A stretch of 63,477 nt of DNA, counting the filler, from Folioceros fuciformis (Eukaryota), in assembly GCA_049999805.1 (NCBI GenBank). It is 9 parts of 9 records of this genome, joined end to end, with 100 filler letters (N's around TTAATTAATTAA, not from the genome) between each part and the next. Parts side by side here need not be neighbours in the genome. Positions count along the whole stretch, not along the records: positions 56,323 to 63,477 come from JBNGIO010002887.1; 8 more parts are not named here. The stretch is one strand, 5' to 3'. The position numbers and the translations under genes were made by a program. Below, in pieces: positions 8,029 through 63,477 of this stretch (the stretch's first letter is position 1; each line of letters starts with the position of its first letter). The notes under the pieces were generated by a model. That model did not search any database. It saw nothing but the letters and a program-made list of their open reading frames with translations, and was not told the origin of the DNA.

Positions 8029-8294
8029 ACTAATGTGTTTAGTCTAAGATTAGTGTCTAGTTAAGTATCATTAGTTGAGATTAGCTTAAGCTAATCTCTA
8101 GGAAGCTTCTTGTGCAGCTTCCTGTGGGCTTCTTGTGAAGCTTCCTAGGGAGCTCTTCTAGAGGGTATAAATACCCCCTTGAGCTCCCTTGTATGTGGGA
8201 CTCTATTGTGAGTGTGACCTCTCTTTCTCCTCTCCTCCTTGCCTCCTTCTCTCCTCTCCTTCACCATGTAGCTCCTAGAGCGTTCCTTCTTACA
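8029..8294 (+). repeat. Probable LTR 3' part (TATA box, CT-rich tract, ends TTACA)
   Basis: GGGTATAAATACCC at ~8164-8177, then a CT-rich stretch; CA at 8293-8294 is followed abruptly by coding-like sequence. Confidence 0.5.
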
Positions 8295-8295
8295 A

Positions 8296-26944: not shown

Positions 26945-27399
26945 ACTCTGACATACCATACCCCACATATTCCCATTCCTAGGTTCCTCTTTATTATTTC
27001 ATTATTTTATATTATTTCATTATTTTATATTATTCCATTATTTTATATTATTCCATTATTTTATATTATTCCATTATTATTAATCATTTAATATTATATA
27101 TCTTTAATTAATATTAAACTAATCACCAGACCTAGACTCAACCTTTCTCGACCCTATGGTTCGGTACCGAACCTAAACCTTCCCCAGCTCTGGGACCAAA
27201 CCTATACCCACTCTAATAACCAAACCAACTATTTACTAGTCTATTAACTTAAATAGCACAAGGAAAAATAGAAAAAATGACCAGAAAATAAAGGAAAAAT
27301 AGGAAAAATAAGTAGAAAAAGAAAAGCAAACCATACCATACCACTATTAACCCTCTTTCAACCAAAACAAACCACTACCCCAAACTTTGGAGGTTCACA
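26945..27399. repeat. LTR-like terminal fragment (family X), ending GGAGGTTCACA
   Basis: 27175-27399 is nearly identical to 32894-33111; both end at the same CA against unrelated flanks. AT-rich array at ~26990-27080. Confidence 0.8.
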
Positions 27400-28410
27400 G
27401 AATCCCTAGATGTTTGTGGAAGACTGTGGAAGACTACTGATGTTGCTGTAAGATTGCTGGAGACATTGCTGAAGAATTGGAGAAAATGGCTGAGAAGATT
27501 GCTGGAGAATGGAGGAAGAATATTGAAGATTGGATGCAAAATCTGGAGAGTTGCTGCGAGATTTTGAGGTGTTTAAGAGTGGCTGTTGGGGATTGTTGAA
27601 GCCCATGAGAGATTGTGAGGGATTGTGAGGAGTGGTGAAAGATTTGCTGAAGATTTGGTGGGCATTGCTGGAGAATGAGACCCTTGGGGGCAGGCCTGTG
27701 AGAATAACCGTGAACCAGAGCTCTTGTGTGTGATTTGAATGTGTGTGGAGTGTTGCATGTGTGAGTGGAGAGGTGTGGCTGATCTGCAAGGCTTTGTTTC
27801 CCAAGGATCAGCCCTTGCATGTGTGAGGAGCATCGAAAAACCCAGCCTTGAGAGTATGGGATGTCCTGGGCAGAAACCCGTGGGTGGAAACCCGCGGCGG
27901 CGCCGGCGTCGAAAATAATTAGTTAGGGTTTGGGGGTGGGATCCACCATGGTAGTGGAAGGACAACGGAGGTAGCCGAATACCGGTAGTTGAAAGACTAC
28001 GGAGGTAGCCGAAGCGGCTACCGGTAGTTGAAAGACAATGGAGGGGTAGCCGAAGCGGCTACCGGTAGTTGAGACCCTACCTTGGCAGTTGAAGGGTCAG
28101 TAGTTATAGAGATCCCCCCCGGTAGTCGAGTGAGTCAGTAGGGTAGCCCAGGGTTGAGGTAGCCGAGTGGGGCCTGGAGCTGTAGAGTAGGGACTGTGGT
28201 AGCTAGGCCAACTGAGGGGTAGGGGTAGTTGAACCAGTAGGTAGTGGAGCTGGGGTAGTTAAAGTCTGACCTAGGTAGTAACTGACTTTAAGAAGAAACC
28301 TGTGTTACTTGGCACAAACCATTCCCTTGGGATCGAATCCCAGTGCTATAGTGACAAAGAGGGTTTGTGTGGACCTCGCAGCACCCCTGGGTGCAATATT
28401 TTCCCCCACA
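27400..28410 (+). repeat. Gypsy-type LTR 3' portion ending CCCCACA
   Basis: End homologous to 11870-12002; GGTAGCCGAAGCGGCTACC hairpin repeats at 28004 and 28045. Confidence 0.75.
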
Positions 28411-32893: not shown

Positions 32894-33111
32894 AACCTTC
32901 CCAGGTCTGGGACCAAACCTATACCCACTCTTATAACCAAGCTAACTATTTCCTGGTCAATTAACCTAATTAGCACAAAGAAAAATAGGAAAAATGACCA
33001 GAAAATCAAGGAAAATTAGGGAAAATAAGTTGAAAAAGAAAACCAAACCATACCATTATTAACCCTTTTTCAACCGAAACAAACTACTACCCCAAACTTT
33101 GGAGGTTCACA
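32894..33111. repeat. Family X LTR end inserted in a copia INT-RT linker
   Basis: Matches 27175-27399. Confidence 0.85.
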
Positions 33112-35700: not shown

Positions 35701-36490
35701 TGGCCAGGGCTGACATGTTATCACAATACAGGGGTGTTGGGCTCTCTTCCTTCTAGTCAATGTCGGCCAGAAAGGTTCGCTCCCACTCGGCCTCCTTATC
35801 AGCATCAGTGAGTGAGTTGTACTCTGCTTCCGTGGAGGAGAGAGCGATAGAAGTCTGCTTCTTGCAGCTCCAATTCATGGCTGCAGAAGACTCCTAGGAG
35901 GAAGCAGTGTGTGCTAAGACTCCTACATGAGTCAGGGTCAGAGGCCCAATCTGCATTGGTGTAGCCTTCGAGTGACAGCTTCCCCGTGCTTTTGCTTCTA
36001 TACGCCAAACCATAGGTGATAGTTCCTTTAAGGTAGCGGAAGATTCTCTTAACAACAACCCAGTGTGCCTTTCTTGGTGATTCTAAGAATTGGGACATAG
36101 TGGAAACCGAATACTAGATGTCAGGTCTGGTCCATCCACTAACAAAGATAAGACTGCCCACGACATGGCGATAAGGAACTGACTCCATTTCCCTAGTCTC
36201 CTCTATTGTCTGTGGGCATTGATCTGCTATGAGCTTTGTGCCAACAGCGTAAGGGGTGCTAACGGCCCTGGCTTGGTCCAGGCAAAATTTCTCAAGTATC
36301 TCCTTGATATACTTATATCGATGGATGACAAAGTTGCCTTGGGCTCTGTCTCTGAGGATTTGGATTCCGAGGCAGAACCGAAGCTCGCCTCTATCCTTCA
36401 TCTCAAATCGGGTGCTCAAAAGTTGCTTTACCTCTTCTAACATGGCTTGGCTGTTTGTGGCGAGGATGAGGTCGTCCACATAGAGGCCGA
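35700..36490 (-). mobile_element. Copia RT/RNaseH fragment
   Basis: GLYVDDLILAT, FEMKDRG, YLKGT, ADWASD; cut at 36491 by an LTR insertion. Confidence 0.9.
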
Positions 36491-37720
36491 TGTGGAGTGG
36501 AACTCACACCCAAGAACCACCAAGGGCCACACTTCCCCCTTATTATCGTCGTAGTACTAGGATTCGCTCCCAAGGGAGTGAACCAGTGTCAAGGTTTCCT
36601 ACAATTTCCCCCCCCACTCTGCCCTAATCTAATCCTATCTATCAGCCGGCCCCTAGACCTAACCACACTATAGCAAAAAGATCAGAACCCTATCTTCAAC
36701 ACCAACTACAACCCTAGTTGAATGAGGACTCAGCATCATCTTCAGCTCCCACTCCTAGCCCCGGGTATTAGCCGCCTCAGCAGCTGAGAGGAGGTTCCAG
36801 CCCTAGCCTCAACCTCCACTCTTAGCCCTAAATGCCAGCGACCTCAGCAGCTGATTGAGAACTTCAGCACCTAAGCTCCTCACCTCAACACAACAACTCT
36901 CTACTCCAGCACTTCAAGTCTCTACTCCAGCGCTTCTCCAGCACTTCAAACCTCTACTCCAGCACTCCAACTCTTCAATTCTTCACCAATCACATCTCAC
37001 TCCAGGATTTTGAAACACAGCAGCCCCTCACCTGCAGTCCTTAAGGCAAGGATGTGCAGACCCAGGCTGGATAGCCTCCTCGGCTCACAGCCCTGCAATC
37101 TATCGCCTTGGAAACCCCTTAGGGACGTCAAGGTACCCCAACCACCCAACCAGCCTGCAAGAAAGGTCAGCCCCTGCGGCTCTGGCCACCCAGATCTCAG
37201 CAATTTTGGGAGCCGCCACGTTCCCCTAGTGGCATGGGGAATCAAGGCCGAGGTGCATCTGCACACTGGATTAATCCCTCTAACCCAGCAGCCTACACAC
37301 AAGGTCAAGGGCACTCTTCACCAAAAAAAGCCTCCCCCCTCAATGACAGACCTAGCCTCTTATACCTCCTTGGCCAAGAACCCTTGTTACTGCCTAATCA
37401 GGTCAGCAAGCCTCAGACAACCCTCCAATCGTCAAAACCCTAAACCTAACTCCGACCTACCTTGACTCTAACCTAACTGACTCTAACTTGCGGCCCTGGT
37501 TGCTCTTATCAAAATTAATCAACCTTCTCTTATGAAAATTAATCAACCTTTCCAAACTACCAAAACTCACGAGTGCCTCTCAACACCCTCTTCCCTCTCC
37601 GATCCTCTCCTTTCCCTTAGGTCATTTGCAACCCCTCAGACTCCACCTTCCTCCAATCGTCTACTCCCCATCTTGCTGGCCAAGGACCCCATGACCCGGT
37701 AAATCTACTCATCTAGTGCC
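36491..37720 (-). repeat. Gypsy-type LTR (family of 12943-14560) inserted just before the copia YVDD codons
   Basis: Reverse complement of ~13350-14560; plus strand begins TGTGGAG. Confidence 0.88.
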
Positions 37721-37953
37721 TGCAGTCCGTATCCAGACATATAACCGTCAGCCAGGGCCTGGGCACCTACCCTTGCATCTGCAGTCAGCCGGATCCGCCC
37801 GAGACCACAGCCCAAATCCCGCTGTCTTTCTTGCTTAGGATCCTGTAATCAGGCCGTAGGCCACTGCCCGGCTCCCGAATCCAGCCCCCAGCCGTCTCAA
37901 GACAACCACTTGCCGGGATTCCGCCCCCCCGGCCAGGTTTTGTAGTTTTCTCA

Positions 37954-38220
37954 CTAATTAGCAGTGAGGTTGAAATGTTCTCCACAACTGCGTTCCATCC
38001 CCAGCGCCGTTGCCCTATGAGGTCCTCCTGTCCACAACCTTGACCCCACCCTTAAGCAGGCATGTTGCACTGTGAACGGAGGGAGAAGGACGGGCAGGGA
38101 TAGAGGGGTGCATAGGCAGCAAGGTGATAAGGTCTCCCCTCCGGACCACATTGAGCATGGCCCAGCGTAATGCAGCCCTTGCGGACTTCACATCATCCAC
38201 CACCATCCTCCTCGCCTCCT
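37954..38220 (-). pseudogene. Universal stress protein (USP/UspA-like) fragment
   Basis: RRMVVDDVKSARAALRWAMLNVVRRGDLITLL matches the N-terminal beta1-alpha1-beta2 pattern of plant USP-A domains; upstream in-frame TAG and a downstream frameshift. Confidence 0.7.
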
Positions 38221-38289
38221 ACCTACTAGGGAAACACACACATTTTTCCACCTCTGCCTCCCCATCCACCTTCAGTTCCCCTGGCCATT

Positions 38290-39453
38290 CGGCCACCCCA
38301 GGCGGCCCCAGCTCAATCCGCCCATCCTGCCCATGCCCGACCAGCTTGGATCCACCTGTAGTCGGTCCTAGCTACTTGCCTGCAGCTGGGTTTCTGCGCT
38401 GCTGGGGTGCCTGCCCGCCCAAATTCGACTGGTCGCCAACTTGTTTGGGATCCTGCAGCTAGCCGGCCTGCCTTCCTAAGCCATCCAGCTAGCCAGCCAA
38501 CCAGAGTCGATTGGCCAGCCTGCCCCTATCGGATCCCATCACCTGCAACCTGTCCTGGCTGCTTGCCTGCACCCACCTAGCGATTCGTCTTCCCACCTTT
38601 TGCCCTGCGGCCACCTTGCCCACTAGATCCAGCCGGGACCTCAGCCCGGATCTGGCCCCTGATTCCACCAGAGCCTTCCACCAGGGTCGCAAGAGCAGCT
38701 TCCTGCCCCCGACTGATCTACCAGTCGTGATCCAGCCAGCACCGGACCTGCCTACCCTCTGACTGCCCTCCAGCCTGCAATTGGTCCGCTCGCTGGCTGC
38801 CTGGTAATCCGACCAGCACCCACCTCTGATCCGCCTGGACGACTGGACCGCCTAGCTTGCCTCCTGCCTCCCGGGATTCGCCTGCACCCTGCCTGGTCCA
38901 AGTCCAGTGCCACCACCTACTTGGATCCAGCCCGGATCCTGGAGCCTGAGTCCGCTCCAGCCCCCTCCGCAACAAGCCCTGATGCCGCCTGCCTGGCCTT
39001 GCTTGCTGGCCAGCACGGCCTGGACCAGCCCGAGGCCCGTCTGGCTGGCTAAACCCACACCCGCCAGGCTTGCCAAGGCCTGGCTGCCTTCCCCGACCAG
39101 GATTCCCCTCAACCAGCTGACCTGCTCCTACTGCTGGCCAGGTTGGCTGTCTGGTGATCCGGCCAGCATCTGCCTGGATTCGCCTGCTGGGCTGCCTGCG
39201 CCGCTGGGGCGACTGCCTGCCCCCTTGGATCTGGCCAGGCAGCTAGCCCGCAAGGCTGCCTACTGTAGCCCCTAGCCAGCCTCCTGCCGATTTGCCCAGA
39301 GGCTGCCTGTCACCTGACCCAGCCATGGGCCACCTAAGCCCGCTGGCTAGCCGCCTCAGCCACTGCCGCAAGCCGTCTGGCCAGCCTGCTGCTGGCTAGA
39401 TCCGATTGGGAAGCCAGCCGAATCTGGCAAGCCCCCCTTGCCAACCTGCTCGC
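38290..39453. repeat. GC-rich degenerate low-complexity tract (CCTGC/CCAGC/GGATCC words)
   Basis: Recurring short words; its ORFs are P/A/L/W-rich low complexity. Confidence 0.55.
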
Positions 39454-39555
39454 NNNNNNNNNNNNNNNNNNNNNNNNNNNNNNNNNNNNNNNNNNNNTTA
39501 ATTAATTAANNNNNNNNNNNNNNNNNNNNNNNNNNNNNNNNNNNNNNNNNNNNGC

Positions 39556-39891
39556 ATGGCACCGAAGCGTGACCTGAACAGCAAGGGCATCAGCAAGCAG
39601 AGGAGGCGCCAGGGTCCGCAGAAACTTCAGGAGCTGGAGGACTGGGATGAGCGCCATCTGCTGGGCTCTAGTGTGACACTAGGCGGGTTCAAAATCTCGC
39701 TTAATATCAAATTGTGCTGGAGCAAGCCTGTGAAGAGGGAGGAGAACTGCATCCAGCTGAAGGACAAAGGAGATGAAGCCCTTCTCCTTAAGCCACTGCA
39801 GGAGGCTAAACACATGCTGCAGCGCCTGATAGAGAGGCAGGAAGAAGAGAAGAGGAGGGCAATAAAGAAGAATAAAGTCTTCAAAAGGTGA
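39556..39891 (+). CDS. 111-aa basic/coiled-coil ORF antisense to and downstream of element E pol
   Basis: ATG-initiated MAPKR... ORF with an EEEKRRAIKKNK end; no family recognised. Confidence 0.4.
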   Translation: MAPKRDLNSKGISKQRRRQGPQKLQELEDWDERHLLGSSVTLGGFKISLNIKLCWSKPVKREENCIQLKDKGDEALLLKPLQEAKHMLQRLIERQEEEKRRAIKKNKVFKR

Positions 39892-42800
39892 ATGGTAGCT
39901 ATGCAGGGTGATTAGAACGTCTTGGAGCTTCATCCACCTCGCTGCAGGCTTAGCTGCATCTGCATACTGCCTTGTGTCTTGGTGTTGCATCCTTTGATTG
40001 CCAGATACTAACATCCCTCCCTATCTCTGTGCCGCAGTATTTGAAAAGTAGAGAGACTGGGAAGCATCAGACAGAGCACAAAACAACATCAGAGGACTCG
40101 GGCCTCACCCGTAAGTCCCTCTTCAACCCCCTAAGTTGCAGACTTGAAGTATTGTTGGTAGTTGAAGAGACCCAAGCCTTCCATGTGCTTAACATGCTTG
40201 TCCTTTGGCAAGGCTTTAGTCAGGATGTCCGCTGTGTTTTCCTCTGTGGGCACATAGAGAATTTTAACTACGCCCCTCTCAGCGGCATCCCTGACGTAAT
40301 GATGGTGGATCTCGATGTGTTTCGTGCGAGCATGGAAGCGAGGGTTCGCGACCAAAGCTATGGCCGATTGATTATCACACCAGAGGTTAGTAGAATCTGT
40401 TTGTGGTTCCCCAATATCTTTTAAGAAAGCACGCTCCCACTCAACCTCTTTCGTGGCATCTGTAAGGGACTTGTACTCGGCCTCTGTACTGGAGAGAGCA
40501 ATGCTCGTCTGCTTCTTACAGCTCTAGTTGACAGCAGCCTGAGACAGCAGAAAAACATATGTGGAGAGACTTTTCCTGGAGTCATTGTCAGACGCCCAAT
40601 CTGCGTCTGTGAACCCCTTCAGAGATAAGTTGCCTGTACCACTGCTTCTGTAACAGAGTACGATGTGATGAGTTCCTTTCAAGTAACGAAATATGCGTTT
40701 GACAGCAGTCCAGTGAACACGCCCAGGGTTTTCTAAGAATTGAGAGACAGTACTGACGGAGTGCTGTATATCAAGGCGGGTCCAGTTGCTGATGAAGATC
40801 AAGCTGCCAACAACGTGACGGTAAGGAACATCTTGCATGTCTTTTTGGTCAGCCTCTGTAAGGGCACATGCATATCTTGTGAGCTTGACACTCACTGCGC
40901 CTGGGGTGGTAGCAGGGTGTGCAGAACCCATGTTAAACTTGTGAAGGATTTCAGCTATATACTTAGGTTGGTGAATGATAAGGAGCCTGTCAGAACGAAC
41001 TCGAAGGACTTGAATTCCAAGACAGAATAGTAAATCCCCACTATCTGTCATTTCAAAGGTTTGCCTTAACATATTTTTCACTGTGGCCAGCATAGAGGTG
41101 TCATTGGCAGCAAGGATCACATCGTCTACATACAGTGCAAGAATCATGTAAGCGTTTCCTTACTGTAGAACATAGACGTTAGAGTCTGCTACACACTGCC
41201 GAAACCCAAGAGCCTTTAAGGCCTTGTCACAACGTTTATACCAGCGTTCTGCACTTTGCTTCAAACCATACAGACATTTGATGAGCTGACATACGTAGTC
41301 GGGATGTGCAGGGTCAGCATAACCCTCAGGCTGTTCCATATACAGCTCCACTTCTAAAATGCCATGCAAAAAAGCAATGTAGACATCCATCTGCTACAAT
41401 TCAAGGTCATATTCAGCGGCTAGGGCAAAAATGAGGCGAAGAGATTGGGCACGTACAACCGGAGAAAATGTCTCCTGATAATCAAGACCTGCCACTTGTG
41501 TGAAACCTCGAGCACAGAGACGTGCCTTGTATCTTGCTATTCTCCCTTCTGCATTTAGCTTGTGCTTGAAAACCCATTTGCAGGTGATTGGTTTTCGGTT
41601 GGCAGGTCTGGGAACTAACTTCCATGTGCCGTTTTTGATCAGGCTGTTGTACTCATCATCCACTGCATATTTCCATTTATCCTTATCTGGTCCTGTAAGA
41701 GCTTCTGTGAGGCTAACAGGTTCAAGTGGAACAGGTGGGGGAGCAGTAACAGCTCCAGCAGAATAGCGAAAGTCAATAGACTGGTATCTAGGCTCCTTCC
41801 ATTCTGAAGGTGGGGGCTTGTGATGAGATGATCGTCGCGGGACAACATCATCCTCAGGAGGGTCTGGAGCCACAAAAGGTGGAGCGGCTTCTGGCCCCTC
41901 TGCTACTTGATGAGGTAGGCCATTTCCATCAAAGCCCCCTGCTGGATCATCCTCTGGAAAAAAGATGTCAGGGAACAGATCATAGTCTTCATCATTATGT
42001 GACCCCAAGTCCAAACCATCTGGTCCTAACATATTGGCCACTTCTGCGGCAGGTGCGGGAAGGACTGCAGGTGGAGGGTCTTCAGCATTTGGCAGAGGTG
42101 CTGGGTCCTGTACATCAGGAGCAGCATCCAAATCGCCTGGAAGGTTAGCAACATCTCCTGCCTCGGGTAAAGCACCATCGGCATCATCAGGGTAATAAGA
42201 GAACAGTCCAGTAGAATCATCAAGATCATTTGAACTGTCAGTAGGTTCTGGAAGAAGTCTGTCCTTTCTGTCAATAGGCTGTAGAGGCTCGACAAAGGTA
42301 ACACTCCTCGCTAGAACCAGCTGTCTGGATGTTGGGTCTAAGAGCTTGTATGCTTTTACATGTTCACTATACCCTATAAAGGTAAGGCATCGTGAACGAT
42401 TATCTAACTTCTTGCGTTTTTCTGCAGGGATATGAGCATAGGCTTTAGAGCCAAAGACCCTAAGATGTAGAAGACTAGGTTTACGTTTCCAGGCAAGCTC
42501 AAACGGTGTGGCAGACGCAAGGGAACTAGTTGGCAATCTGTTCAAAATATATGTGGCAGTCACTACAGCTTCAGCCCAGTAGGAAGAAGGTAAGCCAGAC
42601 CACAGTAACGTAGCCCTTGTCATCCCCATCAGCGTTTGGTTTTTGCGCTCAGCAACCCCATTCTGTTGCTAGGTGTAAGGGACTGTTAGCTGATGGATGA
42701 TGCCCTGTTCTGCCAGGAAATTTTTGAAAGTGTGGTTGACAAACTCTGTCCCATTATCCGACCGGAAAACCTTTAGCAAAGACCTGTTTGCCTTTGAACC

Positions 42801-44829
42801 AAGAGCAACCAGTCCTGGAACAAGGAAAAGGTTTCACTCTTGCGTTTCATGGGAAAAATCCAAGTGTATCGGCTAAAATCATCTGTGATAGTGAAATAAT
42901 ATTCTGCCCCTCCAAGTGATGGAACCTGAAGACGGCCAGAGATATTAGAGTGAACAAGGTCAAGGAGCTGAGTGGTTCTGTGAGCGGGAACAGAAGGAAA
43001 TGGAAGCTCCTTCTGCTTAGTAAGAGCACAAGTCTCACAGAGAGGCAGCTCCTTCAAACAAGATGGTAAGGGCTCCCTATATAATCTAGCTTTTGACATT
43101 GCAGTCAGCGTGTTCCTGTTGACATGCCCTAAACGAGCATGCCACAAAATAGATTGCTGCTTAGTGCTTAGGTTGCCAGCACTTGTTGAATATGCCGTGT
43201 TCCTGTGACCAGGAACACAGACCATGTCCAGACGATACAAATCATTCTCTGGAATAGCCCTGAAGACACAAGTTTCTGGAGAGGTCCTCCTGGAGAAGCA
43301 ACAGCAGTCATCCCTAGCAGTAAGCTCAAAAGTCTTGAGTTGCAGAAGCCTGCTCAGGGAAAGGAGGTTCTTAGCCATGTGAAGCACGAACAGCACATCT
43401 GTGAGTATGAGTGTTGTTCCATCACTCAAGTGGAAGGTGCAGGATCCCTGTCCTTGGATCCGCAGGCTTGTATCCTTCTGTTCATCACCTAGATATACCC
43501 GATCTACAGTGGTCGTGTATTCGAGGGAACTGAACAGAGATGCCTCCCTACAAATGTGTGAAGTGGCACCCAAATCCAGGTACCATGCTGTCTTATCTCC
43601 AGTAGATGTGGATAGGCAGATTGTTAGAATTTTGACTACTGTCTTCCTTGAATCACCAGTTTTGTCTTTAACAGTGACGGTGGCTGCAGATCGGGGAGGC
43701 TGCTTCTGAGGCTCCCCAGCTTTCTTCTTTCTACAGTCTCGAGCCCAGTGACAAGGAATACCACACCAATTACAAGTACCTGTTTTCTTGGTTGAATTGG
43801 AATTAGAGGATCCTGCATCCTGTCGTGAGTTTTGATAATATGGTGCTGTCTTAGGTTTGCCCCTCTGCCCCTGTCTACTCCGGATAGCAGTTAGCACTCT
43901 GTCAGCTTTGGACTTAGAACCAGACCCTGACATGAGCCTGCTCTGCTCTTCCTGGAACAGGGCACCTATCACCTCGTCTAAGGTGAGAGTGGAGGTTTTA
44001 CCAGCAGCCTGTGCCTGACGGATGGGCACGTTGTGTGCAGACACAAAATTCTGATAGCTAGGAGGTAAGCTGGTAAGCAACTGTGCAATGACATCTACTT
44101 CATCCATCACAGTGCCTACAGCCGCAAGTTGGGCTCGGAGATGTCTGAGCTTGCTGGTGTGAGCAAGTACTTTTTCTCCTTCCCTCATCCTGAGCCCATA
44201 GAATTCTTGTCGAAGTGCACACAAGGTAAGTACGTTGCGTACTTCATACTGGTTAGAAAGCTGTTTCCAAATCTCACTAGCTTTGGTGAGAAATTCTACT
44301 GCAGGGATCATGTCCTCTGCAAGACCACCTATCAGAAGTGCCATGGAGATACTGTTAGCATGAGCCCATTTGTCCTTTTCTCCCTTCGTTGTAGAGGGAT
44401 CAGGTTCAGGGATGGAGCCATCTACAATTCCCAAGACACCTCTGGCTAACAAGGTAGTTTTCATCCTCACCCTCCATACCTCATACTTAGTCCCATTAAA
44501 CCTATCTTTTTCTTTTACACTTTCTGTGAAGGTGGGGCTATTGTATCCAGGAGGAGGAGGGGGAGGTGGTGATGTATCCATCTGAGGTTAAACTAGATGA
44601 ACTACAGGTCAGGGTATGTCCGCTGTCTATGGGCGTAGAAGAGCTATCTGACATACAGGTGAACACTAAGCAAGCTATGGCGAATGGTCACCAGCTATGA
44701 GAGACAGACCTCTTCATGACGAAACGGTAAGTGAAGAAGATGGTAAACTCATGATTTAAAAATACTAACCATAGTTACATTTCATGAGTTTAGGGAAAAA
44801 GACCCTAACTAATCAGCCATGTGGCAGTT

Positions 44830-51100: not shown

Positions 51101-51200
51101 NNNNNNNNNNNNNNNNNNNNNNNNNNNNNNNNNNNNNNNNNNNNTTAATTAATTAANNNNNNNNNNNNNNNNNNNNNNNNNNNNNNNNNNNNNNNNNNNN

Positions 51201-54200
51201 TGGGGCTGTCCAGCCTATGCTCATACACCTGATGAAGTCAGACGCAAGATGGACTTTAAGGCAACCAAACACCTGTTCATCGGTTATACAGAGGGCATTA
51301 AAGGCTACAAACTTTATGACCCCCTGAATCGTCGTTTCCTGCATGCCAGAAATGTCATCTTTGATGAGCAGTTTCTCCTGCAAGTCTCAGAAAAGAGCAG
51401 AGACGTACCTGGCCTAGAACGTCTCACAACTGATGAACAAGATGCACCCTCAACACATGATGAGCACCTGGTTACCTTTCAGCAAGTACCAACTGCTGCC
51501 GAACAGCCTGCTGTTGCCTTTCCAGAAGATGAACCTGACCTCACTGCAGATGACTCAACCTCGGAGACAAACGACCAGGTTGACGAGCCTCAGTATGAGG
51601 AACATGACAATGTGACTAACGATAGTCCCCCACATTCTCCTCCACTAGAAACTGAGGAGAACCAGGAGCAGCTTCACTCAGAGGTCGCTGAAGAAGTGGT
51701 TCAGGCACCACAGGAGCTCAGAAGATCTGCCAGGAGCCACACCACAGATCCAAGCCAGTGGACGCACAAACCACTGAGCTATGAATTGGATGAAGAGCAC
51801 CGAAGACTGCATGCAAACTTTGCAGCCAGCTCAGATGCTCCTGGAGTTCAGGACTTGCACATACCTCATAATTATGTTGCACGCGCCCTGATAGCAGCTC
51901 AGGACCTCGGAGAACCTGCTACACTGAAGGAGGCACTGTCCTCCCCAGAAGGCAAGCTCTGGAAGGTAGGCATAGACTCTGAATACCAGTCTCTCATCGA
52001 TAACCAAACTTGGGAGCTGGTAGACCTGCCTCCAGGACGCAAACCACTCACGGGAAAGTGGGTGTTCAAGAAAAAGTTAAACCCCGATGGGTCAGTGGCC
52101 AGATACAAGGCAAGATACGTTGTTCATGGATACAAGCAGGTCGAGGGACTGGACTTGCATGAAACATTCTCACCTGTTGTACGAGCCTCTTCTGTAAGGA
52201 TGCTCTTTGCCTTGGCTGCTGAATGCAAACTGGATATTCACCAAATGGACGTCAAGACCACTTTCCTGCATGGTGAAATAGACGAGGAGATGTACATCAC
52301 CCAGCCTGAGGGTTATGTCAGCAAGTCAGAACCACACAAGGTATGCAAGTTGAGAAAGAGCTTGTACGGCTTAAAACAAGCTCCAAGGATCTGGTACCAA
52401 AAGATTCATGCTTACCTGGTCAAATCCGGATTCAGTCAGAGCGATGCTCACACAAACGTCTACATCCTGAGGCAAGGGCAGATGTTTGCCATTTTAGCAC
52501 TGTACGTCGATGATGCACTGATATTTGCCAATTCCCCTGACATCATGAAGAAAGTTAAGTCCATTCTCACTGCTGAATTTTCCATGACGGATTTGGGACA
52601 GCTCACTTTCTTCCTAGGCATACAGATTGTCATCAGTCCAGACAAGAGCAGTATATTCTGCCACCAAGCACATTACGTAAGGCAAATGCTAGAAAGATTC
52701 ACTATGACAGACTGCAAGCCAGCTATCACTCCCATGGCTGTGGGAGAGAAGTTCTCCACAGACCAGAGTCCAAAGACAGAAGCAGAAAAGATGGAAATGG
52801 CAAAGAACCCTACAGTATGCTAACGGGATGCCTTATCTGGATCAGCGGATGGACAAGGCCTCATGTAGCTCCGGCTGCACGAGTCTTCTCTAGGTTTCTT
52901 GCTGACCCCGGCACTGCACACTGGACAGGAGTTAAGAGAGTCCTACGCTATCTGAAGGGAACGCAGCATCTTGGACTCAAATACAAATCACAAGGAAAGT
53001 TTCCACTACTCATCTGCTACTCTGACTCTGATTGGGCAAGTGATGAAGACTCTAGGCAGTCAATCACTGCCAATTGTACAATCCTCTCTGGCGGAGCAGT
53101 CAGCTGGACTTCAAAGAAGCAGACTGTGGTCGCACTCTCTAGCACCGAGGCAGAATACACAGCCGCCACTGCAGCCGCTCAAGAAACTGTCTACAATCGC
53201 CTGTTCATGGCTTCTGTGGGTTTTCCTCAACCCGGAGCCACGACTGTCTACTGCGACAACCAGTCAGCCATAGCCTTGTCCAGGAATCCAATGCACCACT
53301 CTCGGACCAGGCACATAGCCGTCAAACAGCACTATATCAGGCAGACAGTGACCTCCGGAGAAATTGACCTAATCTACGTACCCACAGAGCAAAACGTGGC
53401 AGACCTACTCACTAAGTCACTCCCAAAAGATAGGCACATTGCTCACTGCAAGGGTCTGGGGCTCGACACCCAACCAAGTTCTTGACTTCTTGCACACCTA
53501 CACAGCACAGGCACGCACATGCACAAACAGAGGGTTAGTCTTGTCACAGACAGTGGGGGAAAGATTGACACGCACGAGGGAATTGCTACCTTCCTTTACT
53601 CCTGTGTGTGCGCAGGGAAGAAACACTACAATCCTGCCATCTTCGCCTCCACTTCAGGACTTCTCCAGAACGGAGCATACCTAAAGACCAGGTTACCCTC
53701 TGGATCACAATCAGCAGCATCAAGAATCATCTCAAGGCCTGGACACGGCGACAGCTTGCGGAAATCCTCCTCATCAGTAGCAGGAGGCAATCCCCTGAGC
53801 CGCCGCAATTGAGCATGCAACAACCTCATCTTCTTGCGCAGCTGTTCCTCCTTGCCAAGATCAATTGGCCTACAAGCTGCCTGAAGCACCGAACACCTCT
53901 CGGCAAATCTCTTTTGCTCCCAGGCGGCGACGCCGACCTGTACCAGCAGCAGGATCAATGGAACAAAGCTGCCATCCAAGTGAGAAATGCCGCCAACACT
54001 CAGCATAGCTGCAAGCCGTTCTGCAGGCGGAAAGTATGCGAAAGACTGAGGACGGCAGGAGGCTGCGGCGTAAACTAGTTCACGACGGCGGGAATGCGGA
54101 ATAAGTGGGGGTAGCGAAATACGGCTGCCCTAAATATATCCCGCTTCCCGGCGCTAAGCGTAGTCCTTAGGTTAATTATGCACATAGAATACGAATAGGC

Positions 54201-54399: not shown

Positions 54400-56222
54400 C
54401 TAACAAGGTAGGGACATCTCCAATTGACTATGGGTATTCATGTATGAACTATGTAAAACCAGACATCGACCAAGTATCAGCAAGTGTACTCTCAAGAGTG
54501 GTAGATGAGGAGTCTGTTTGAGGAGTCAAAAATTCCTTGAAGGTAACACTACATGCTAGTATAATTTTGGAGGTCTTAGGGTCATACAGCTTATAGGCTT
54601 TGTATTCCTTTAAATAGCCAACAAAGATAGAGGGTCTAGACCTATCATCTAACTTCCCCCTCTTGGCTTCAGGAAAAAAAGTAAAAGCAGGTGACCCAAA
54701 GACCCGCAAGTGCAGCAGGCTAGGCTTTTGACCCCAAAAAGCTTCATAAGGGGTGCGACTAGGCAGAGCAGAAGTAACAATTCGATTCAGAATGTATGTG
54801 GCTATCACCACAGCCTCTGCCCAGAATGTTTTAGGTAAGTTAGCCCACGAGATCATGCTGCATGTCATGCCCATCAAAGTTTGATTTTTACACTCAGCAA
54901 CGCCGTTCTGTTGTTGTGTAGAGGGCATTGACAACTGGCGAATAATACCATATGCTTGGAAGAGATCATCAAACCGATGACTAGTGAATTCCCCTCCATT
55001 ATCAGTTCGAAAGCACCTTACAAGCCGGCCAGTTTGTCTCTGAACCATAAGGATCCAAGCCGAGATGTGTTCGAACACATCGCTCTTCAACTTGATAGGA
55101 AAAGTCCAAGTATATCGGGAAAAATCGTCAATCAGTGTCAGATAGTACTCTGCACCACCAAGAGCCTTCACATGCAGCTTTCTAGCAATATCAGCGTGCA
55201 CAAGTTCAAGAACAACAATAGCCCTGGTAGGTTGTTTGTTCTTGAAAGGCAATTCTTTTTGTTTAGAGAGTATATAGGATGTGCAAGCTGCCAGATGCTT
55301 GAAACAGCTGGGGAGCTTTTCTCTATAGAAGGTGGAGTTCGACATGATATCCAACTTTGACTTGTTCACATGGCCCAACCTTGCATGCCACAGGTTAGCC
55401 TTCTCATTGTACGCAGCAAGAAGAACTCTAGTGCGTGACTTAGACACTTGGACCGGTTGATAAAGATCATGTACTAAGACACCCTTGGCAAGAGTCTTCT
55501 CTGGACATGTAAGGGAATACAGGTAGCACTTACTATTTTCAAAACGAAAACCATACAGGTTCATTTGAGAAATGGCTCTAATAGACAACAAGTTTCTGCT
55601 CATTGCTGGAACAAACACGACTTCCTGAAGATGCAACGTTGACCCATCAAGAAGTGGTATGTCTACTACACTCGTCCCTTTTACCTCAATGCCCCGTGCA
55701 TCACCCACAAAGACTGACTGAGGGATTTGCTGTTTGTGGAAGGAGGAGAACATCTGTCGGTTGTTGCAAACGTGAGCAGTCGCTCCCGAATCAACAAACC
55801 AGTGCTAAGTATTCTCTGTAGTCGAGGTCAGGCAAACTGTGAGTACAGAACTGCTACTTCGAGGTTGTTGTTGGCCATTCTGTGATTTGGCTTCCTTAGA
55901 TGAAACATGAGCCTCTGATCTAATAATCTTTTTGGGCTCTCCAGCTCTCTTCTTTCTATAGTCACGTTCCCAGTGCCCGGGTATCTAGCACTAGTTGCAA
56001 CTGCATGTGCGCTTAGTGGTGGAGGAAGAGGTACCAGAAGTGTTTGAAGAATTCTTCTTACTTTTGTCCTTTCCTTTCCATTGGTTCTTGCCTTTTTCAG
56101 CAAACAAGACTTTCTCACCACGCAGCCGTGAACCAGAGTGAGAACATTGGCTGCTCAACTCCTCTTGCAGGAGGACCCCAACTATCTCATTCAGATTGAG
56201 TGTAGAAGGTTGACCACTTGCT
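54400..56222 (-). mobile_element. Copia gag-PR-INT fragment
   Basis: LWHARLGH, TDNGGEF, FWAEAV; 434-aa ORF. Confidence 0.9.
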
Positions 56223-56322: not shown

Positions 56323-59300
56323 GCTATGGCAGGGGTTTGAGGCTATGGTCGTGAGCGTGAAGGTGGTTGGCAACGCAAGCCATTGAAAGGCGCAGGAGGC
56401 GCAACGGCGTAGGCGACGTAGGAAGCTGCAACAGGTGCCACAAGCGCAAGAGCACACGAGAGGGAGAGAGACTCAGGAGGAGCAGCAACTACTGGAGGCA
56501 ACCAGGCCATGGAAGCCACAGCAGGCCCAGGATTTGCAAGGAGGAAGGCCAGAACTTGGCAAACAGTGTTTTGTTTTTTTTGTTTTTTGAAAGCTTGAGC
56601 AAAGGTTGTTTTTGCTTAGCGAAGAGTCAGCTGCACATTCAGGAATTGTTGAGATCTAATTGAGGCTTGTGGAGTGCTGGAGCTCTATAGCAGTGCAGGG
56701 AGTTGCACTCAAGATTGTCAAAAACATATGTTGGAAGATGCATGAAAGCGTTTTGACAATCTGTCCACAATGGACTTGGTGGCATAGCAAGCAAGAGAAG
56801 GCAACTGACTTGAGGTTCAGGACAAGTGTTGGTGCGTAAAGGAGCCTGAATCATGGCTAACGTGCAGGGATCAGACAATATCTCTCAGGTTGTGGGAGAG
56901 AAGTTAGATAACAAGAATTTTGCTTTGTGGAAGTTCAGGATGAAGAACTTCTTGGTAGGTAGAGGCTATTGGGACCTCTGCACAGGTGATGAGAGTGAAC
57001 TGGAGATGGATTGTACTCTATCACAAGAGCAAAAGACTGCTCACAAGCATTGGACTGAGAGAGCATGTAAAGTGTTACACTGGCTCTCCTTAAGTATTTC
57101 AGATGCTATGGTCATATAGATCACGGGATGTGAGTCTCCGAAGGATGCATGGGACATACTCATGAGGAACTATGAGAATGTCATACATGCTAGGAAAATC
57201 CAGTTGAAGCAGTTCAACAACTTGTCATGAGGTAGCAGATCCATACTCGTGTATACAACAGCTGATCAGCTTGCTACAATCGGTGCAAGTGTGACGGAAG
57301 ATGACATGGTTGCAGTTACTCTGAACGGACTTGGCAAGGAATACAAGTCCTTTGACACATCAATCTCTGTGAGAGTTGAGTCCCCAAGTTCGGATGAATT
57401 GGTTGCTTTGTTGCTGCATGAGGAAGTTAAGCTTGGTCTGAACACAGGATTAGGTATGTCTCAAGGGAGAGACACCGTTTTGTTTTCTAACCAATGTGGG
57501 AGAGGCCACAGAGGTCGTGGTTCATTCCAAGGACGGGGTGATGCCCGGAACATGCAGAATCAGCAAGACAATTGGAAGTTTTAGAGGCGCAGGTAGAGCC
57601 ACAAGAGATAGAGATGGTTCTTTTCAATCTCATGACCATACCAATAGAGACAAAAAGTGTTACTACTGTGGAAAGGTTGGTCATATTGCTAAGGATTGTT
57701 ATAAGTAGCATGGAGATATGAGAGGAAAACGAAGGCAGCATGGGAACTATGCCTTCTCTAGTAATCCTGGAAATGACCAGGATAGGTTGTTTGCCATGCA
57801 ACATCTCTCTGAACAGGATGGGCAGAATGATGAGAGATGGTACATTGATTCAGGAGCATCAAACCACATGACTCCGCATGGCGAGTGGTTTAACAAGATG
57901 GATGCAGGCCCCCATGATCATGTGTGTACAGGAGATGACACAACATGACATAAAGCACAGAGGAATTGTTCCTCTTAGGATGCTGAATGGTCAGCAAAAG
58001 AGTCTGCAAGATGTGTTGCATGTTCCAACCATTACGAAGAACCTGTTGTCTATTGGAAAATCGCTGAACAAAATTTGCAGGTTCAATTCAATAAAGATGG
58101 ATGCTTTATTGAAGAATATGACAGCGGGTGCAAACTGATTGCTAAAGGTAGTAGGAATGGACGGATGTTCACTCTGGATGCATCCATTCCAAAGCTAAAT
58201 GCAGCAATGTTTACAAATGATGCAGGTGCCATACGTGATGTTGAAATATGGCATAAGAGGATTGGGCATGTGAACATAGAGAAGCTGAAATCTATGCAAC
58301 AGAAAAGCACGGTGGAAGGATTGCCCAAGTTCAAGTATGCTGATCTTGGTCATGTGTTCTGCATGTCAATTTGGAAAACAGTTAAGGTTTCCATTTGTGC
58401 AACACGTGTAGAACATCTCGAGACCTTTGCAATTGATACACTCTGATGTATGGGGTCCTTCACAGAATGCATCGTTTGGAGGAGCCCACTACTATGTCTC
58501 ATTCATTGATGATTTCAGCAGGTACACGTGGCTGTACATATTGAAGCGTAAGGATGAAGTGTTCAAGTCTTTCAAGGACTTCAAAAAGCATGCTGAAAAT
58601 GAATTCAACTACTCCATCTCTTATCTAAGATCAGATGGAGGGGGAGAATATGTCTCAAATGAGTTTGACAGGTATCTTGCAGATCATGGTATACGAAGAC
58701 AGCTAGCTGACTTGCAGATACACACCACAATAGAATGGTGTTGCAGAGAGGAAGAACAGGGTCGTCATGGAAACAGCAAGGGCAATGCTGAATGAGAAGT
58801 GCTTACCTAATGATTATTGGGCAGAAGCAGTGATGACAGCAGTGTATGTACTGAATTGAACTCCTACGGCAGGAATTCATGATGCTACACCAATTGAGAG
58901 ACTGTATGGTTGTAAGCCGGATATTAGGCACTTGAAAGTGTTTGGGTGCATTGCATATGTGCATGTACCTGATGAGAAGCATAGGAAGCTGGATCCTACA
59001 GTAGTGAAGAGTGTTTTTCTGGGGTATGCACGAAATAGGAAGGCATATAAGTGTTATGTGCCATCCACACATGAGATCCTGATAAGCAAGGATGTGGTAT
59101 TTGATGAGTTAGCCTCCTTGTATAGCAACTGAGTTGCACTACCCTATGATGCACCCACAAGGAAGAGTACTGTTAAGAGTACTCTAGCAAAGACTGAGGA
59201 TGTGACCAATGGTGGATCACCAACGGTGAATGCATGGTCTGGAAGACTGCGGAATGGTAAACCCAAGACCACTAACCCGGACATGTCAGTGAGGGGGAGA

Positions 59301-61155
59301 GTAGAAAGCAGCAAATCTGGAAATAAAGGATATGAATCCACAAGTAGTGAGAGCATTGACAATGAGTTTGGCATTCCGTCTGTGGAAACGCCAGGTGCTA
59401 AGGAGCAACGATATGGAAGGCAGGTTCAAACTAAACCAAGACCAAGGAGATCTGAGAGGGTTAGGAAACCCATTGACAGGTACACCTATACAAGCTACAA
59501 TGCGCAACATTATGCGTATATGACAAGGGTCATAGCTTGTAAGGAGCCAACCAAGTTTGTTGAGGCAGTGACAGATGATAAGTGGTGTCAAGCCATGGAT
59601 GAAGAATACTCAGCATTAGTTGAGAACGAAATGTGGGATTTGGTTCAATTGTCTGATGGCAAGGTTCCTATTGGTTCTAAGTGGGTGTACAAGCTAAAGT
59701 TCAAGTCAGATGGAACGCTGGAGCGTTACAAGGCTAGGTTGGTTGCAAAGGGATATGCACAACAGTATGGTCTTGATTATGAGGAAACCTTTAGTCCAGT
59801 AGCCAAGATGACAACTGTAAGGACAGTCATAGCATTAGCAGCAGCTAAAGGATGGAAGTTATGGCAAATGGATATCAAGAATGCTTTCTTGAATGGTGAG
59901 TTGCAGGAGGAAGTGTACGTGGAACAGCTTGAAGGCTATGTTCATCCTAAGTTTCCAACGTACGTATGCAAACTGAAGAAGGCATTGTATGGACTCAAAC
60001 AGGCACCTAGAGCATGGAATGCTCGTATCACAAGCTATTTGAAGGAGCGAGGGTTTGTGATTGGAGACGCAGATCACAGTCTATTTGTAAAGAGACCAAG
60101 GTAGGACAAGTGTGTCTTGTCGTTTATGTTGACAACCTGATCATCACATGAGATGATGCAGATGGTATTGCAGATGTTAAAGCAAATCTGCAAAAAGAGT
60201 TCAAGGTGAAGGATCTTGGTGAACTCAGATACTTCTAAGGAATTCAGTTGTGTCTACACCTCAAGGAATCTGGCTATTGCAAAAACAATATGCTAAGGAT
60301 ATGCTGCAGAAGTATGGCATGGCAGATTGCAAAGCGATGGATACACCATTAGAGCAGAACGTTAAGCTGCAAATGGATGTAGGAACTGAGCTGGAAAATG
60401 TGACCATGTATCGACAGATGGTCGGAAGTTTGATCGACTTGACTATCACACATCCTGACTTAAGTTATGCAGTAGGACTGATCAGTCAATTCATGCAGAA
60501 CCCATGGAAACCGCACTTGGATGCAGTTAGAAGAATCATGAGATATGTGAAAGGAACTACTGAGTTTGGATTGCTCTATGAGCATAGGAAGCATCTTGAA
60601 CAGACAGGATATACAGATGCTGATTGGGCTGGTTGTGCGTATGACAGAAGATCAACCAGTGGATATGCATTTAGTCTAGGAAGTAGTATGATTAGCTAGC
60701 AAAGCAAGAAACAATCGACAGTTGCTTTGTCGAGCGCAAAAGCAGAGTATCGAGGAGCTGCAATGACAACCTGTGAAGCAGCTTGGTTGCAGAAGTTGCT
60801 ACATGATCTTGGAAATATAGCGCACAGCAAGGTCACAATCTACTGTGACAACATGAATAACATGAGGCTGGCTACTAATCCTATGTTTCATGCTCGTTCG
60901 AAGCACATAGAAGCACATTATCATTTCATCAGGGAAGTGGTATTATCTGAGAAGATAGATCTTCGGCACGTGAAGACCGAAGACCAGGTAGTTGATATCT
61001 TTATTAAGTCGCTAGGTAGAGATAAGTTCTTAGACTTTCGTGAACTACTTGGAGTGTTACAAATAGTCTGAGCTTGAGGGGGAGTGTTAGAAATCAAGCT
61101 CTAATTGAATTATTATTAAGAGCATACAACACTTAGAATAGTGTTGTATGCTCTC
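56323..61155 (+). mobile_element. Ty1/copia element H (different lineage), decayed, with truncated 3' LTR
   Basis: gag ATG 56853; CYYCGKVGHIAKDC; PR WYIDSGAS; INT HSDVWGP and SDGGGEY; RT; RNaseH to 61070; PPT TGAGGGGGAG 61075-61084; LTR starts TGTTAGAA at 61085. Confidence 0.93.
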
Positions 61156-61199
61156 AAAAAAAAAAACCAAAAACCCGCATTCCACACCTTGCCACACAA

Positions 61200-62097
61200 T
61201 CATCTCTAGATTCATCACAGGATCAACAAACTGCTGAAGGAGGCTACTCCGATCTATTGGAAACAGATGAAACAAAGGGAGTCCCAGCCACTTACCCACT
61301 TGATGATATGGATCCTGATGATCCTGAAACATTTGACGATCTTGCTGACGAACATGGAGATGATGCTGTATTGGCAGACCCTCCACCAGTGGCACTTGAT
61401 GTGCCTAATGTTGCCGATACTAATCATGAAAACAATCTGAACCTGCAGGATGATTTGTATAATGTTTTGGAAAATGATTATCCTCCAATCTACGAGGGGG
61501 ATGCTGCTCCCATTCCGACGATGAGGGGGAAGTTGTAGGACATCAAGCTCTGGAAAACATAGCCCCTGATGACGAGCCACATGAACAAGAGCCTGCACTT
61601 AGACGCTCTACATGTCACAGGCCACCTCCTGACCAATGGGCAGAACCCCGTTACCAGTCCATTGATTTTCGAAAAACCTCTTTTGCTAAAGCTGCTACCT
61701 TGGCTACTGCTAGCCCTGAAGTTCTAGAGGAGCCTACCACTTTATAGCAGGCCTTCAGTGGTCCACAGAGTGAATAGTGGAAGGCTGCAGTGGAGGATGA
61801 GTACCAATCTCTCATAAAAAATAAGACATGGGTACTTGCAGACCTCCCACCTAGAAGAAAGGCGATTAGCTGTAAGTGGGTTTTGAAAATCAAGCTCAAT
61901 GCACATGGACGAGTGGCTAGATACAAAGCAAGGCTCGTAGCTCGTAGGTTTACCCAAGTGGAAGGCGACTATCAAGAGGCCTTCTCACCTATTGTTCGTA
62001 CACAGTCCATCAGAATTCTGCTTGCTTATGCCACTGAGTTTGACCTTGACTTGCAACAGATGGATGTTTGTACTGCCTTTTTGTATGGTACCCTTAA
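61200..62097 (+). mobile_element. Copia INT-RT linker and RT N-terminal fragment, related to element E
   Basis: LIKNKTWVL, CKWVLK, ARYKARLVA, QMDVCTAFLYGTL; ends at TTAA 62094-62097. Confidence 0.88.
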
Positions 62098-62469
62098 CAA
62101 GTTCTGCGCCTAACGGTCGTATTCTATGAAGCCCATTTGGTGCACATTTGAATCTACACCATCTTAGTCATATATCCACATTTAAGACCTTTTTAAAAAA
62201 AATCACTTGTTTTGATGTGTGGTGGACACCATCCATCTCCACAAATTTGCTTGCAACCCACAACCAACTGGTACATAAGTCATTAGAACTATAAAAATTT
62301 CCAGAAAAAACGAATTGTACTTCGGGTGCGCTGGTCTACCGACGCACTCAATAGTATGTTTGGGTGAGAGGAAAATGGCTATCTACACGCCATGAATTTA
62401 AAGAGTTTAACAGTCGAATTTAAATATGCGCATAATGTACCACAGACTTCAGCTACTCTCCAAATCACC

Positions 62470-63419
62470 TCTACACCAAAACATGAACATGTTGGTTGGC
62501 CTCGGAATCAACAACTATATCTACATCTTTCAGGCGCTGGCCCTCTGTGTCCCCGAAGTCGTCTAAATCCACGTCCAAGACAAAGAAATGTGGGTCGTCC
62601 ATAGTCTGAGATGGAAGTGTGCCATTCTCATCTCATATCATCATCGCATAAAGATCTTCTGCTGGTCTGTCGTCCGATTGAGAAAATATCTCAATATCTC
62701 TCCTTTTTTCCCCAGCAAACTGAATACCTGCATATGACGATCCATGCTACCATACACTTTTGATACGGCGAGACGACCATAGAGTCTGCCGAGTGGAACA
62801 AATGTTTCTTTACCACAACTCCATGCCTTATAACTCTCGGCAAAAGAAATCCTTGATTTGAGAATAATGCAGCTTTTGTGGCTTGAGCTTCAGAGTGAAC
62901 TGCACTTCCATCAGTTAAATATTCCACAGTCTCAACTGCCCTTGCATTGGGAGGAATGTTGGTCTTCTCCCACACTAATGTCTGTATGGTTCCCTTCTTG
63001 CACCATGGCCGAAGTGCTTCCCTAGCCTGTGTAATGAGGTCCACGCCATGCATGAGGACCGTCCTATAAACATTACTGCTCGTGCATTTTGAAAACCCTT
63101 TGATCATGTCTTCAAGCTCTTTGCTTGTTAGCTGCGTGTCGAATTCATGGCGTTGCAGTCCGCGAGGCAAATCAGAGAATAATAGAGTATAAGGTCGTTT
63201 TACCAGAAATGCGTTCATCTCTAGAACGTTTCGTTGGATTACTTGATACTTAGTCTTCTGGTTGCTGCTTGGGACCCTAAACTCCGATAATCCTGCATCC
63301 ATATCTGCGTCAGCGAGTTTCTGCTTTTCCTCTTCCATGCGCTTCCAGTTTCTCGCTGAATAGACATAATCTTGGAAAGGCTTCGGCAATGATTCAAGGT
63401 TGTTGTCGTCCGTGGGTTT
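62470..63419 (-). pseudogene. Exon encoding a beta-class N4C/N6A DNA amino-methyltransferase-like domain, probably degraded
   Basis: U-rich intron and CAG acceptor at 63422-63420. Motif order is LLFSDLPRG (motif IV, DPPY position), IQTLVWEKTN, VEYL, VSPYQK. No intact FxGxG afterwards; an acidic tail lies in another frame. Confidence 0.6.
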
Positions 63420-63477
63420 CTGCCAACAAACAGTTTGGTCAAAACAACCACACCACAAGCACAATCATAAATCGAGA

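Follow-up and report, generated by a model that had tools for sequence, protein, structure and literature searches.

Does a spliced-looking exon at the far end of a stretch of plant DNA descend from a prokaryote-type DNA amino-methyltransferase, and, if so, does it belong to a working gene? The exon lies in 63,477 nucleotides of Folioceros fuciformis DNA (GenBank assembly GCA_049999805.1), here called the window, which comprises nine parts of nine records joined end to end with 100 filler letters between them; positions 56,323 to 63,477 come from record JBNGIO010002887.1. We conclude, with a probability of roughly 0.8, that the exon in the window is a non-functional copy, truncated at its 3′ end, from a plant family that descends from beta-class DNA amino-methyltransferases, bears an intron and has been amplified, and that it belongs to a clade marked by the motif DLPRG. 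The homology and the fold class are firm: the exon is a piece of a eukaryotic gene of the plant lineage whose ancestry lies with the beta-class (PF01555-type) DNA amino-methyltransferases and not with the MT-A70 family. The window copy itself appears to be a dead fragment with no function of its own, and its interest lies in the family to which it points.

The minus strand at 63464–62691 is a stop-free frame of 257 codons, whose translation we call P0001. The frame contains LLFSDLPRG (63185–63159), VLMHG (63059–63045), IQTLVWEKTN (62987–62958), VEYL (62927–62916) and VSPYQK (62774–62757). LLFSDLPRG takes the position of strand beta-4 and motif IV, and a beta strand is predicted at residues 94–98 in a model of P0001; its D-L-P-R codons (63173–63162) replace the (D/S)-P-P-(Y/F) of the beta-class enzymes. 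The WEKTN portion (62972–62958) is the W.K.N motif of beta-class amino-methyltransferases, and its tryptophan, W165 of P0001, is almost invariant across the family. SPYQK (62771–62757) is the start of the (H/S)P.QKP motif, cut after its lysine, K236, which is the final homologous residue. The W.K.N and (H/S)P.QKP motifs, which lie between motifs IV and I, align with those of DpnA and CcrM in the profile matches given below, and all family-invariant residues are kept in the exon. The homologous fragment runs from 62757 to 63419 on the minus strand (residues K16–K236); its product comprises the N-terminal helices of a protein resembling beta-class amino-methyltransferases, together with the catalytic half.

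Immediately upstream, the minus strand at 63420–63445 is rich in pyrimidines and finishes with ttgttggCAG, as the putative 3′ end of an intron with its CAG acceptor at 63422–63420. The alignment to the family profile begins at 63419, the first base past this acceptor. In the relatives P0002 and P0003 the start of homology is preceded directly by a Q codon, and the window has CAG there too. Another protein, P0015, falls in the same 90% cluster as P0002 and carries a different N-terminal part of 205 amino acids, joined exactly at the homology start. Because these boundaries coincide, we infer a conserved phase-0 intron, with one or more upstream exons that the window does not reach. Residues 1–205 of P0015, its N-terminal extension, matched no Pfam family and gave no usable match in the ESM Atlas; they may show what the upstream exons missing from the window encode.

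A phmmer search of P0001 against 1.84 billion protein representatives returned 12 proteins at E<=1e-3, five of them at E<=1e-10, the best being P0002 (E 7.5e-21, 32% identity). One match, P0010, a 2140-residue bacterial protein of tetratricopeptide (TPR) repeats, was dropped as spurious, leaving 11 true relatives. A profile hidden Markov model (HMM) built from these 11, with the window excluded, matched the minus strand of the window at 143.8 bits (E 2.1e-45), profile positions 14–245 corresponding to 63419–62736. The tblastn matches of the 11 relatives end between 63012 and 62736, and those of the full-length relatives end at 62757 or 62736. Other routes added little: a word-indexed protein search with P0001, for proteins of near and of longer length, returned nothing, and an alignment query found only P0007 and P0011 again. 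The ESM Atlas gave weak leads (0.85–0.86), with MT-A70 and N6_N4 clusters among the matches. In IMG/VR and 185,579 prokaryote genomes, scans with peptide patterns of the DLPRG clade, which detect close relatives only, found no relative, and a metagenome scan yielded a single distant locus (L001), whose match is confined to the generic C-terminal part of the methyltransferase.

The class of the family is given by its relatives. Ten of them were compared with PF01555 (N6_N4_Mtase; gathering cut-off 26.7 bits), and four passed: P0004 (50.1 bits), P0006 (47.3), P0008 (30.5) and P0003 (30.0). P0007 (25.0) and P0013 (20.6) fell below the cut-off, and the four without a match are short pieces lacking the C-terminal half. 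P0001 itself had no PF01555 match even at E<=10, which is expected, because four of the six matching relatives align only through the C-terminal part that is absent from the window; in P0006 and P0008 the match starts earlier. Against sequences from the PDB, the family profile found DpnA/M1.HpyAVI (2.4e-7), CcrM (3.1e-7), M.RsrI (1.7e-6) and M.MboIIA (4.1e-6), with a weak match to the bdelloid N4CMT (E 0.011). This profile alignment sets lDlPrGlql on the ADPPYNLQL of CcrM, a stretch that is weak alone and collinear with the rest. The alignments with the phage DNA methyltransferase families phrog_67 and phrog_498 likewise extend from the region of motif IV to motif I inclusive.

Structure models agree with this class. 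The AlphaFold2 model of P0001 (predicted local distance difference test score, pLDDT, 63.6; predicted template modelling score, pTM, 0.56) retrieved CcrM as the top match in Foldseek (3.7e-6), followed by MboIIA (1.3e-4), with METTL3-METTL14 also matched. A better model was obtained for the full-length relative P0006 (pLDDT 75.4, pTM 0.76). With VIA-align it matched M.BceJIV at Z 21.2 (root-mean-square deviation 4.4 over 209 residues), CcrM at Z 20.9 over 222 residues, M1.HpyAVI at 18.9, RsrI, N4CMT and MboIIA at 18.8 and the N4-cytosine enzyme M.PvuII at 18.0, with a clear drop to Z 12–13 for MT-A70 proteins (MTA1 and METTL3). Both models thus predict a Rossmann-like fold of the beta-class methyltransferase type. 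The original prediction had read, from the sequence alone, a spliced exon with LLFSDLPRG, IQTLVWEKTN, E-Y-L and VSPYQK as a beta-class, PF01555-type methyltransferase, and had named the lack of any Rossmann-fold methyltransferase match as the outcome that would count against it. All four motifs do lie in one minus-strand frame behind a plausible CAG acceptor at 63420; with the PF01555, profile and fold-model matches above, both to profiles and to structures, that reading stands. Its span of 62470–63477, for which no strand was given, holds for 62757–63419, the homologous part, and not for 62470–62756, which is unrelated repeat sequence.

The second half of the question, whether this is a working gene, turns on what follows K236. 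A C-terminal HMM covering SPYQKP through VDVD found only the QK stub in 61000–62800, and no motif I in any of the 2944 stop-to-stop frames of the window (best E 4.8). To examine the junction, contigs from three sequencing runs (X1–X3) of one sample in one study were aligned to 61500–63477. Five contigs of X1 and four of X2 match the exon as far as 62757 and then diverge to other sequence, with an agreement of 0.94–0.95. On the minus strand their continuation reads, in frame after K236, P-L-G-L-M-G-M-L-V-N, which fits the QK-P[LV][RKG]L of the relatives. A contig of X3 approaching from the opposite side leaves the window sequence at 62750. Directly after the AAG codon the window has TG and not GT, and thus no canonical donor. 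The breakpoint is placed at 62756–62757, where the methyltransferase-like repeat joins an unrelated one. As the sequence reads, the window copy is 3′-truncated and the whole SAM-binding (S-adenosylmethionine-binding) half is missing; it should be unable to bind SAM and would be non-functional, since an unrelated repeat interrupts it after the K of VSPYQK and that half is lost. In place of the gene's 3′ part stands a repeat of unknown class at 62097–62756, with loose ends at 62096 and 62750. Its summed contig depth is well above that of the window's own copy, and no other copy of it was found in the window. A 9-nucleotide inverted match, TGTATGGTA, near both of its ends was set aside, being off the boundaries and below the thresholds of the repeat search.

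The exon is a multi-copy repeat, with a dozen or more diverged copies (90–99% identical) in the genome. Aligned contigs numbered 291 in X1, 223 in X2 and 110 in X3, mostly at 90–99% identity; by identity, those of X1 divide into 62 at >=99%, 86 at 95–99% and 143 at 90–95%. At single variant sites of the open reading frame (ORF), the alternative letter occurs in up to 12 contigs (62818 and 63176, X1). X1 and X2 each include one contig that joins 62838 to 63007, skipping 168 nucleotides (56 codons, in frame), a deletion variant among the copies. A diverged contig covers 63333–63472 and so crosses the acceptor onto the intron side, and 63420–63472 is covered by diverged contigs; because the intron side is present in diverged copies, the amplification took place at the DNA level and not by retroposition of a spliced mRNA. 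Some copies continue in frame past the break and would be intact-looking relatives in the same genome. Within the window, neither the family HMM nor the repeat search found a second copy of the exon. One candidate, at 27408–27512 on the minus strand (frame 27378–27572), had an independent E-value of 0.22 over a low-complexity stretch (...SVVFHSL...) and was judged to be chance, and the scattered tblastn matches around it are not collinear.

The full-length relatives give the DLPR residues a meaning of their own. In the alignment DLPRGL is invariant in 7 of the 7 closest sequences, which are only 29–55% identical to P0003, and the other five relatives have DIPYGF, DVPYGF, DIPFGF or DIPSTT. A maximum-likelihood tree separates the DLPRG group (seven) from the D[IV]P[YFS] group (five) with support of 99/97, and places P0001 within the DLPRG group, outside its tight five-member core. 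DLPR is on this basis a conserved character of the clade and not decay private to the window copy. These results divide the remaining claims of the original prediction. It took the copy to be probably inactive on account of both DLPR and a missing or degraded motif I: motif I is indeed absent and the copy broken, whereas DLPR is shared by all seven clade sequences. It mentioned DIFSIG, after a stop, as a possible degraded motif I; this stretch (62690–62673, minus strand) follows a TGA stop at 62693–62691 in the same frame, is past the 62757/62756 break, where other genomic copies continue differently, and is not part of the gene. Nor does DIFSIG, or DENGT...LDVDLD as a motif I and VDVD region, find support from the C-terminal HMM, and both stretches lie past the break. 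The exon is a repeat in many copies and not a single gene. The suggestion that it might lead to intact relatives was borne out by the intact-looking copies that run on in frame with QKP in the same genome.

Full-length members of the DLPRG clade (P0003, P0004 and P0006) keep VVSPYQKP, D.CSGSG and VDVD, that is, the SAM-binding half, and motif I in the form D.C[ST]G[ST]G is found in P0003, P0004, P0006, P0007, P0008 and P0013. Intact DLPRG proteins therefore probably bind SAM. In the available part of a structural paper on N4CMT, the first residue of motif IV and the Pro that follows are described as hydrogen-bonding the target amino group, with the Tyr stacking on the flipped base (PMC10406627). 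In DLPR the D and the second P are retained, Leu stands in place of the first Pro, and Arg in place of the stacking aromatic. From this loss of the aromatic residue to Arg, taken with the residue roles reported there, DLPRG proteins may be either non-catalytic, for example as the partner of an active subunit, or altered in how they handle the base or substrate. Judging by motif, an active N6-adenine or N4-cytosine enzyme is more likely to be found in the D[IV]P[YF] clade. N-[IL]-P-[YF] is a working motif in adenine methyltransferases of the KsgA/Erm type. The sister D[IV]P[YF]GF clade includes a liverwort protein; the sole named relative, P0013, is from the liverwort Riccia sorocarpa and bears the automatic annotation "DNA methylase N-4/N-6 domain-containing protein". 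The remaining relatives come from Logan or ENA assemblies, in 90% clusters with three or four members on separate contigs. The conserved loss of a catalytic aromatic residue beside a conserved SAM site poses the testable question of how amino-methyltransferases become pseudoenzymes or new enzymes.

The nearest known systems are the bacterial and phage beta-class enzymes (CcrM, M.BceJIV, M.RsrI, M.MboIIA, M1.HpyAVI and M.PvuII). They share the predicted fold of P0006 (Z 18–21) and the permuted order in which motif IV precedes motif I, and the W.K.N, (H/S)P.QKP and G-rich motif I elements recur in the relatives. The plant family differs from them in having D-L-P-R rather than (D/S)-P-P-(Y/F) at motif IV, an extra conserved N-terminal helical part (LP..F..H...A..W) and, being eukaryotic, a putative intron; the window copy differs further in lacking the SAM-binding half. 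Among eukaryotes, the parts of the literature accessible to us describe only two PF01555-type co-options, the bdelloid N4CMT (PMC8885841) and the Marchantia DN4MT1 (bioRxiv 10.1101/2021.02.12.428880). The Marchantia polymorpha proteins MpDN4MT1a/b are likewise land-plant descendants of prokaryote-type amino-methyltransferases and likewise duplicated; as far as the accessible text of that preprint goes, these sperm 4mC (N4-methylcytosine) methyltransferases carry TSPPY (bioRxiv 10.1101/2021.02.12.428880). The present family, with DLPRG or D[IV]P[YF]GF, is set apart from them by this reported motif. N4CMT (PDB 8s9m/8s9n/8s9o) is also a PF01555-type protein encoded with introns in a eukaryote (Z 17.6–18.8; profile E 0.011). 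It has SPPY and a C-terminal chromodomain (PMC8885841 and PMC10406627, each in the part available); the plant family has DLPRG, lacks a chromodomain and differs in its N-terminal extension. The accessible part of the N4CMT report states that the protein has no eukaryotic homologs (PMC8885841). By their motifs, the plant DLPRG and D[IV]P[YF] proteins would form a third, separate eukaryotic PF01555-type group, distinct from the TSPPY enzymes of Marchantia. A literature search by title and abstract, to which supplements listing relevant taxa may add, found no paper on a plant DLPRG or DIPY family beyond the automatic name of the Riccia protein.

For a paralogue that is conserved and keeps its fold despite a degenerate motif IV, the dead partners of MT-A70 heterodimers, of the METTL14/MTA9 type, may serve as a working analogy, although they belong to a different family (Z ~13). 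METTL14, whose motif IV reads EPPL, is the non-catalytic partner of METTL3. In the explanation that we propose, the exon comes from a plant-lineage gene descended from beta-class DNA amino-methyltransferases, a class in which motif IV is N-terminal to the SAM-binding motif I. It belongs to a distinct clade with D-L-P-R-G-L at motif IV, whose full-length members keep SPYQKP and D.CSGSG. The exon has been amplified at the DNA level, and the window copy, which lies in nested Ty1/copia DNA, has been cut after VSPYQK by its junction with an unrelated repeat. A wider proposal, which we regard as rather unlikely in its entirety, posits an amplified and intron-bearing family, so far unrecognised, in land plants (liverworts and the organisms behind the Logan contigs at the least); its D[IV]P[YF] clade would be a plausible writer of 6mA (N6-methyladenine) or 4mC. 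In that proposal the DLPRGL clade, with its SAM pocket intact, would be either a new catalytic solution with Arg for the aromatic residue or a non-catalytic partner or reader in a system other than that of 5-methylcytosine, possibly borne by a mobile element.

Several other explanations of the exon were considered. An accidental likeness of motifs, in a frame left open by chance or on the strand opposite a transposable-element gene, could appeal to the lack of a direct family match for P0001 and to a region full of transposable elements, and is nevertheless refuted by the E-values of 7.5e-21 and 2.1e-45, by collinearity over 221 residues and by a consistent fold. Membership of MT-A70 (a METTL3-, METTL4- or MTA1-like relative) is very improbable. 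It is in keeping with an ESM Atlas cluster in which 31% of the members carry PF05063 (score 0.85), with the many METTL3-METTL14 chains that Foldseek returned for the P0001 model at E 1e-4 to 1e-3, and with the W.K.N motif order, which is common to the MT-A70 and PF01555 families. PF05063, however, matches neither P0001 (E<=10) nor any of the ten relatives (E<=1); it is PF01555 that relatives pass, the P0006 model scores Z 18–21 with PF01555-type enzymes against 12–13 with MTA1 and METTL3, and the relatives carry a D.CSGSG...VDVD motif I region typical of DNA methyltransferases. We consider it improbable, too, that the gene is intact and functional, with a long intron starting at about 62756 and its SAM-binding exons past transposable-element insertions or beyond the window. 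In favour, the exon stays open over 257 codons with every family-invariant residue in place, a GT follows the first base of the non-homologous sequence (T|GTATGG), and introns can be very long where a genome is rich in transposable elements. Yet other genomic copies run on directly and in frame after K236 with QKP, so that the family has no intron at that point; the divergence is immediate after AAG, at TG and not GT; no frame of the 62.7 kb downstream encodes motif I; and the flanking sequence is itself a repeat that ends at about 62750.

An explanation compatible with the truncated-copy reading, possible though doubtful, is that the methyltransferase-like gene is cargo of a transposable or virus-like element, amplified by transposition and acting for that element, for example by marking its DNA. 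Amplification within one genome does raise the possibility of a mobile carrier: the diverged copies are many and, with the intron side included, point to the DNA level; the window copy sits in nested copia DNA; the 90% clusters of the relatives have their three or four members on separate contigs; and the closest non-eukaryotic profile families are phage DNA methyltransferases. There is precedent as well for the capture of methyltransferases by eukaryotic retrotransposons, according to the available part of a recent preprint (bioRxiv 10.64898/2026.05.21.726589). Against a cargo role, the window contains no transposase, reverse transcriptase, integrase or capsid gene linked to the exon, the adjoining copia pieces are truncated and on the opposite strand, and the window does not reach the upstream part of the unit. 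For the N-terminal extension of P0015 no family match was obtained, and the clade patterns, able to detect close relatives only, found none in IMG/VR or the prokaryote genomes. That preprint, in the same available part, reports DAM retrotransposons, apparently of another methyltransferase family, as absent from Streptophyta (bioRxiv 10.64898/2026.05.21.726589).

Some observations weigh against the reading of the exon as a truncated copy of an amplified, intron-bearing methyltransferase family. P0001 alone has no match in Pfam (E<=10), NCBIfam, PHROGs or PDB sequences, and for that reason its assignment runs through relatives and through models of middling confidence (pLDDT 63.6 for P0001). Its motif IV, D-L-P-R, departs from the catalytic (D/N/S)-P-P-(Y/F/W). 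The intron and its acceptor are putative, as read from the sequence; in the one run guessed to be of RNA (X4) nothing aligned to the stretch, a result that bears neither way on expression. The break is based on short assembled contigs of one sample from one study, and the continuation can be followed for 30 letters; the runs carry a guessed DNA label ("DNA?"), and none of the listed contigs crosses the junction of the window itself with 31 letters on each side. The depth of contigs identical to the window is about 10–14 and the summed depth in bins of the ORF is 46–763 (X1), figures that are contig depths and not copy numbers. Constraint on the copies is also slight at best: of the 21 best-supported ORF variants, taken from the best 40 of 177 variant sites, nine are synonymous and 12 are not, for a random expectation of 22–34% synonymous, so that any synonymous excess appears at most weak.

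The remainder of the window consists mainly of mobile-element DNA. Positions 1–62113 are largely nested Ty1/copia sequence on both strands, and 8 of the 10 long ORFs tested carry copia gag, integrase or reverse transcriptase domains. Copia ORFs with reverse transcriptase or SH3 domains lie at 22372–24141, 51153–52823 and 33063–34292, those with gag and integrase at 42773–44587 and 54449–55804, and a copia-like pol ORF, recognised by translation only, at 59133–61071. The next feature downstream of the broken gene is a truncated Ty1/copia reverse transcriptase fragment at 61778–62113 on the plus strand, with a 69% DNA match to the copia reverse transcriptase at 41675–41362, the ORF of which carries PF07727. 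Two GC-rich blocks were also observed, one at 8001–12000 (GC 0.56–0.57, skew +0.22 to +0.30) and one at 36001–40000 (GC 0.51–0.58, skew -0.15 to -0.28); they may represent one type of element in two opposite orientations.

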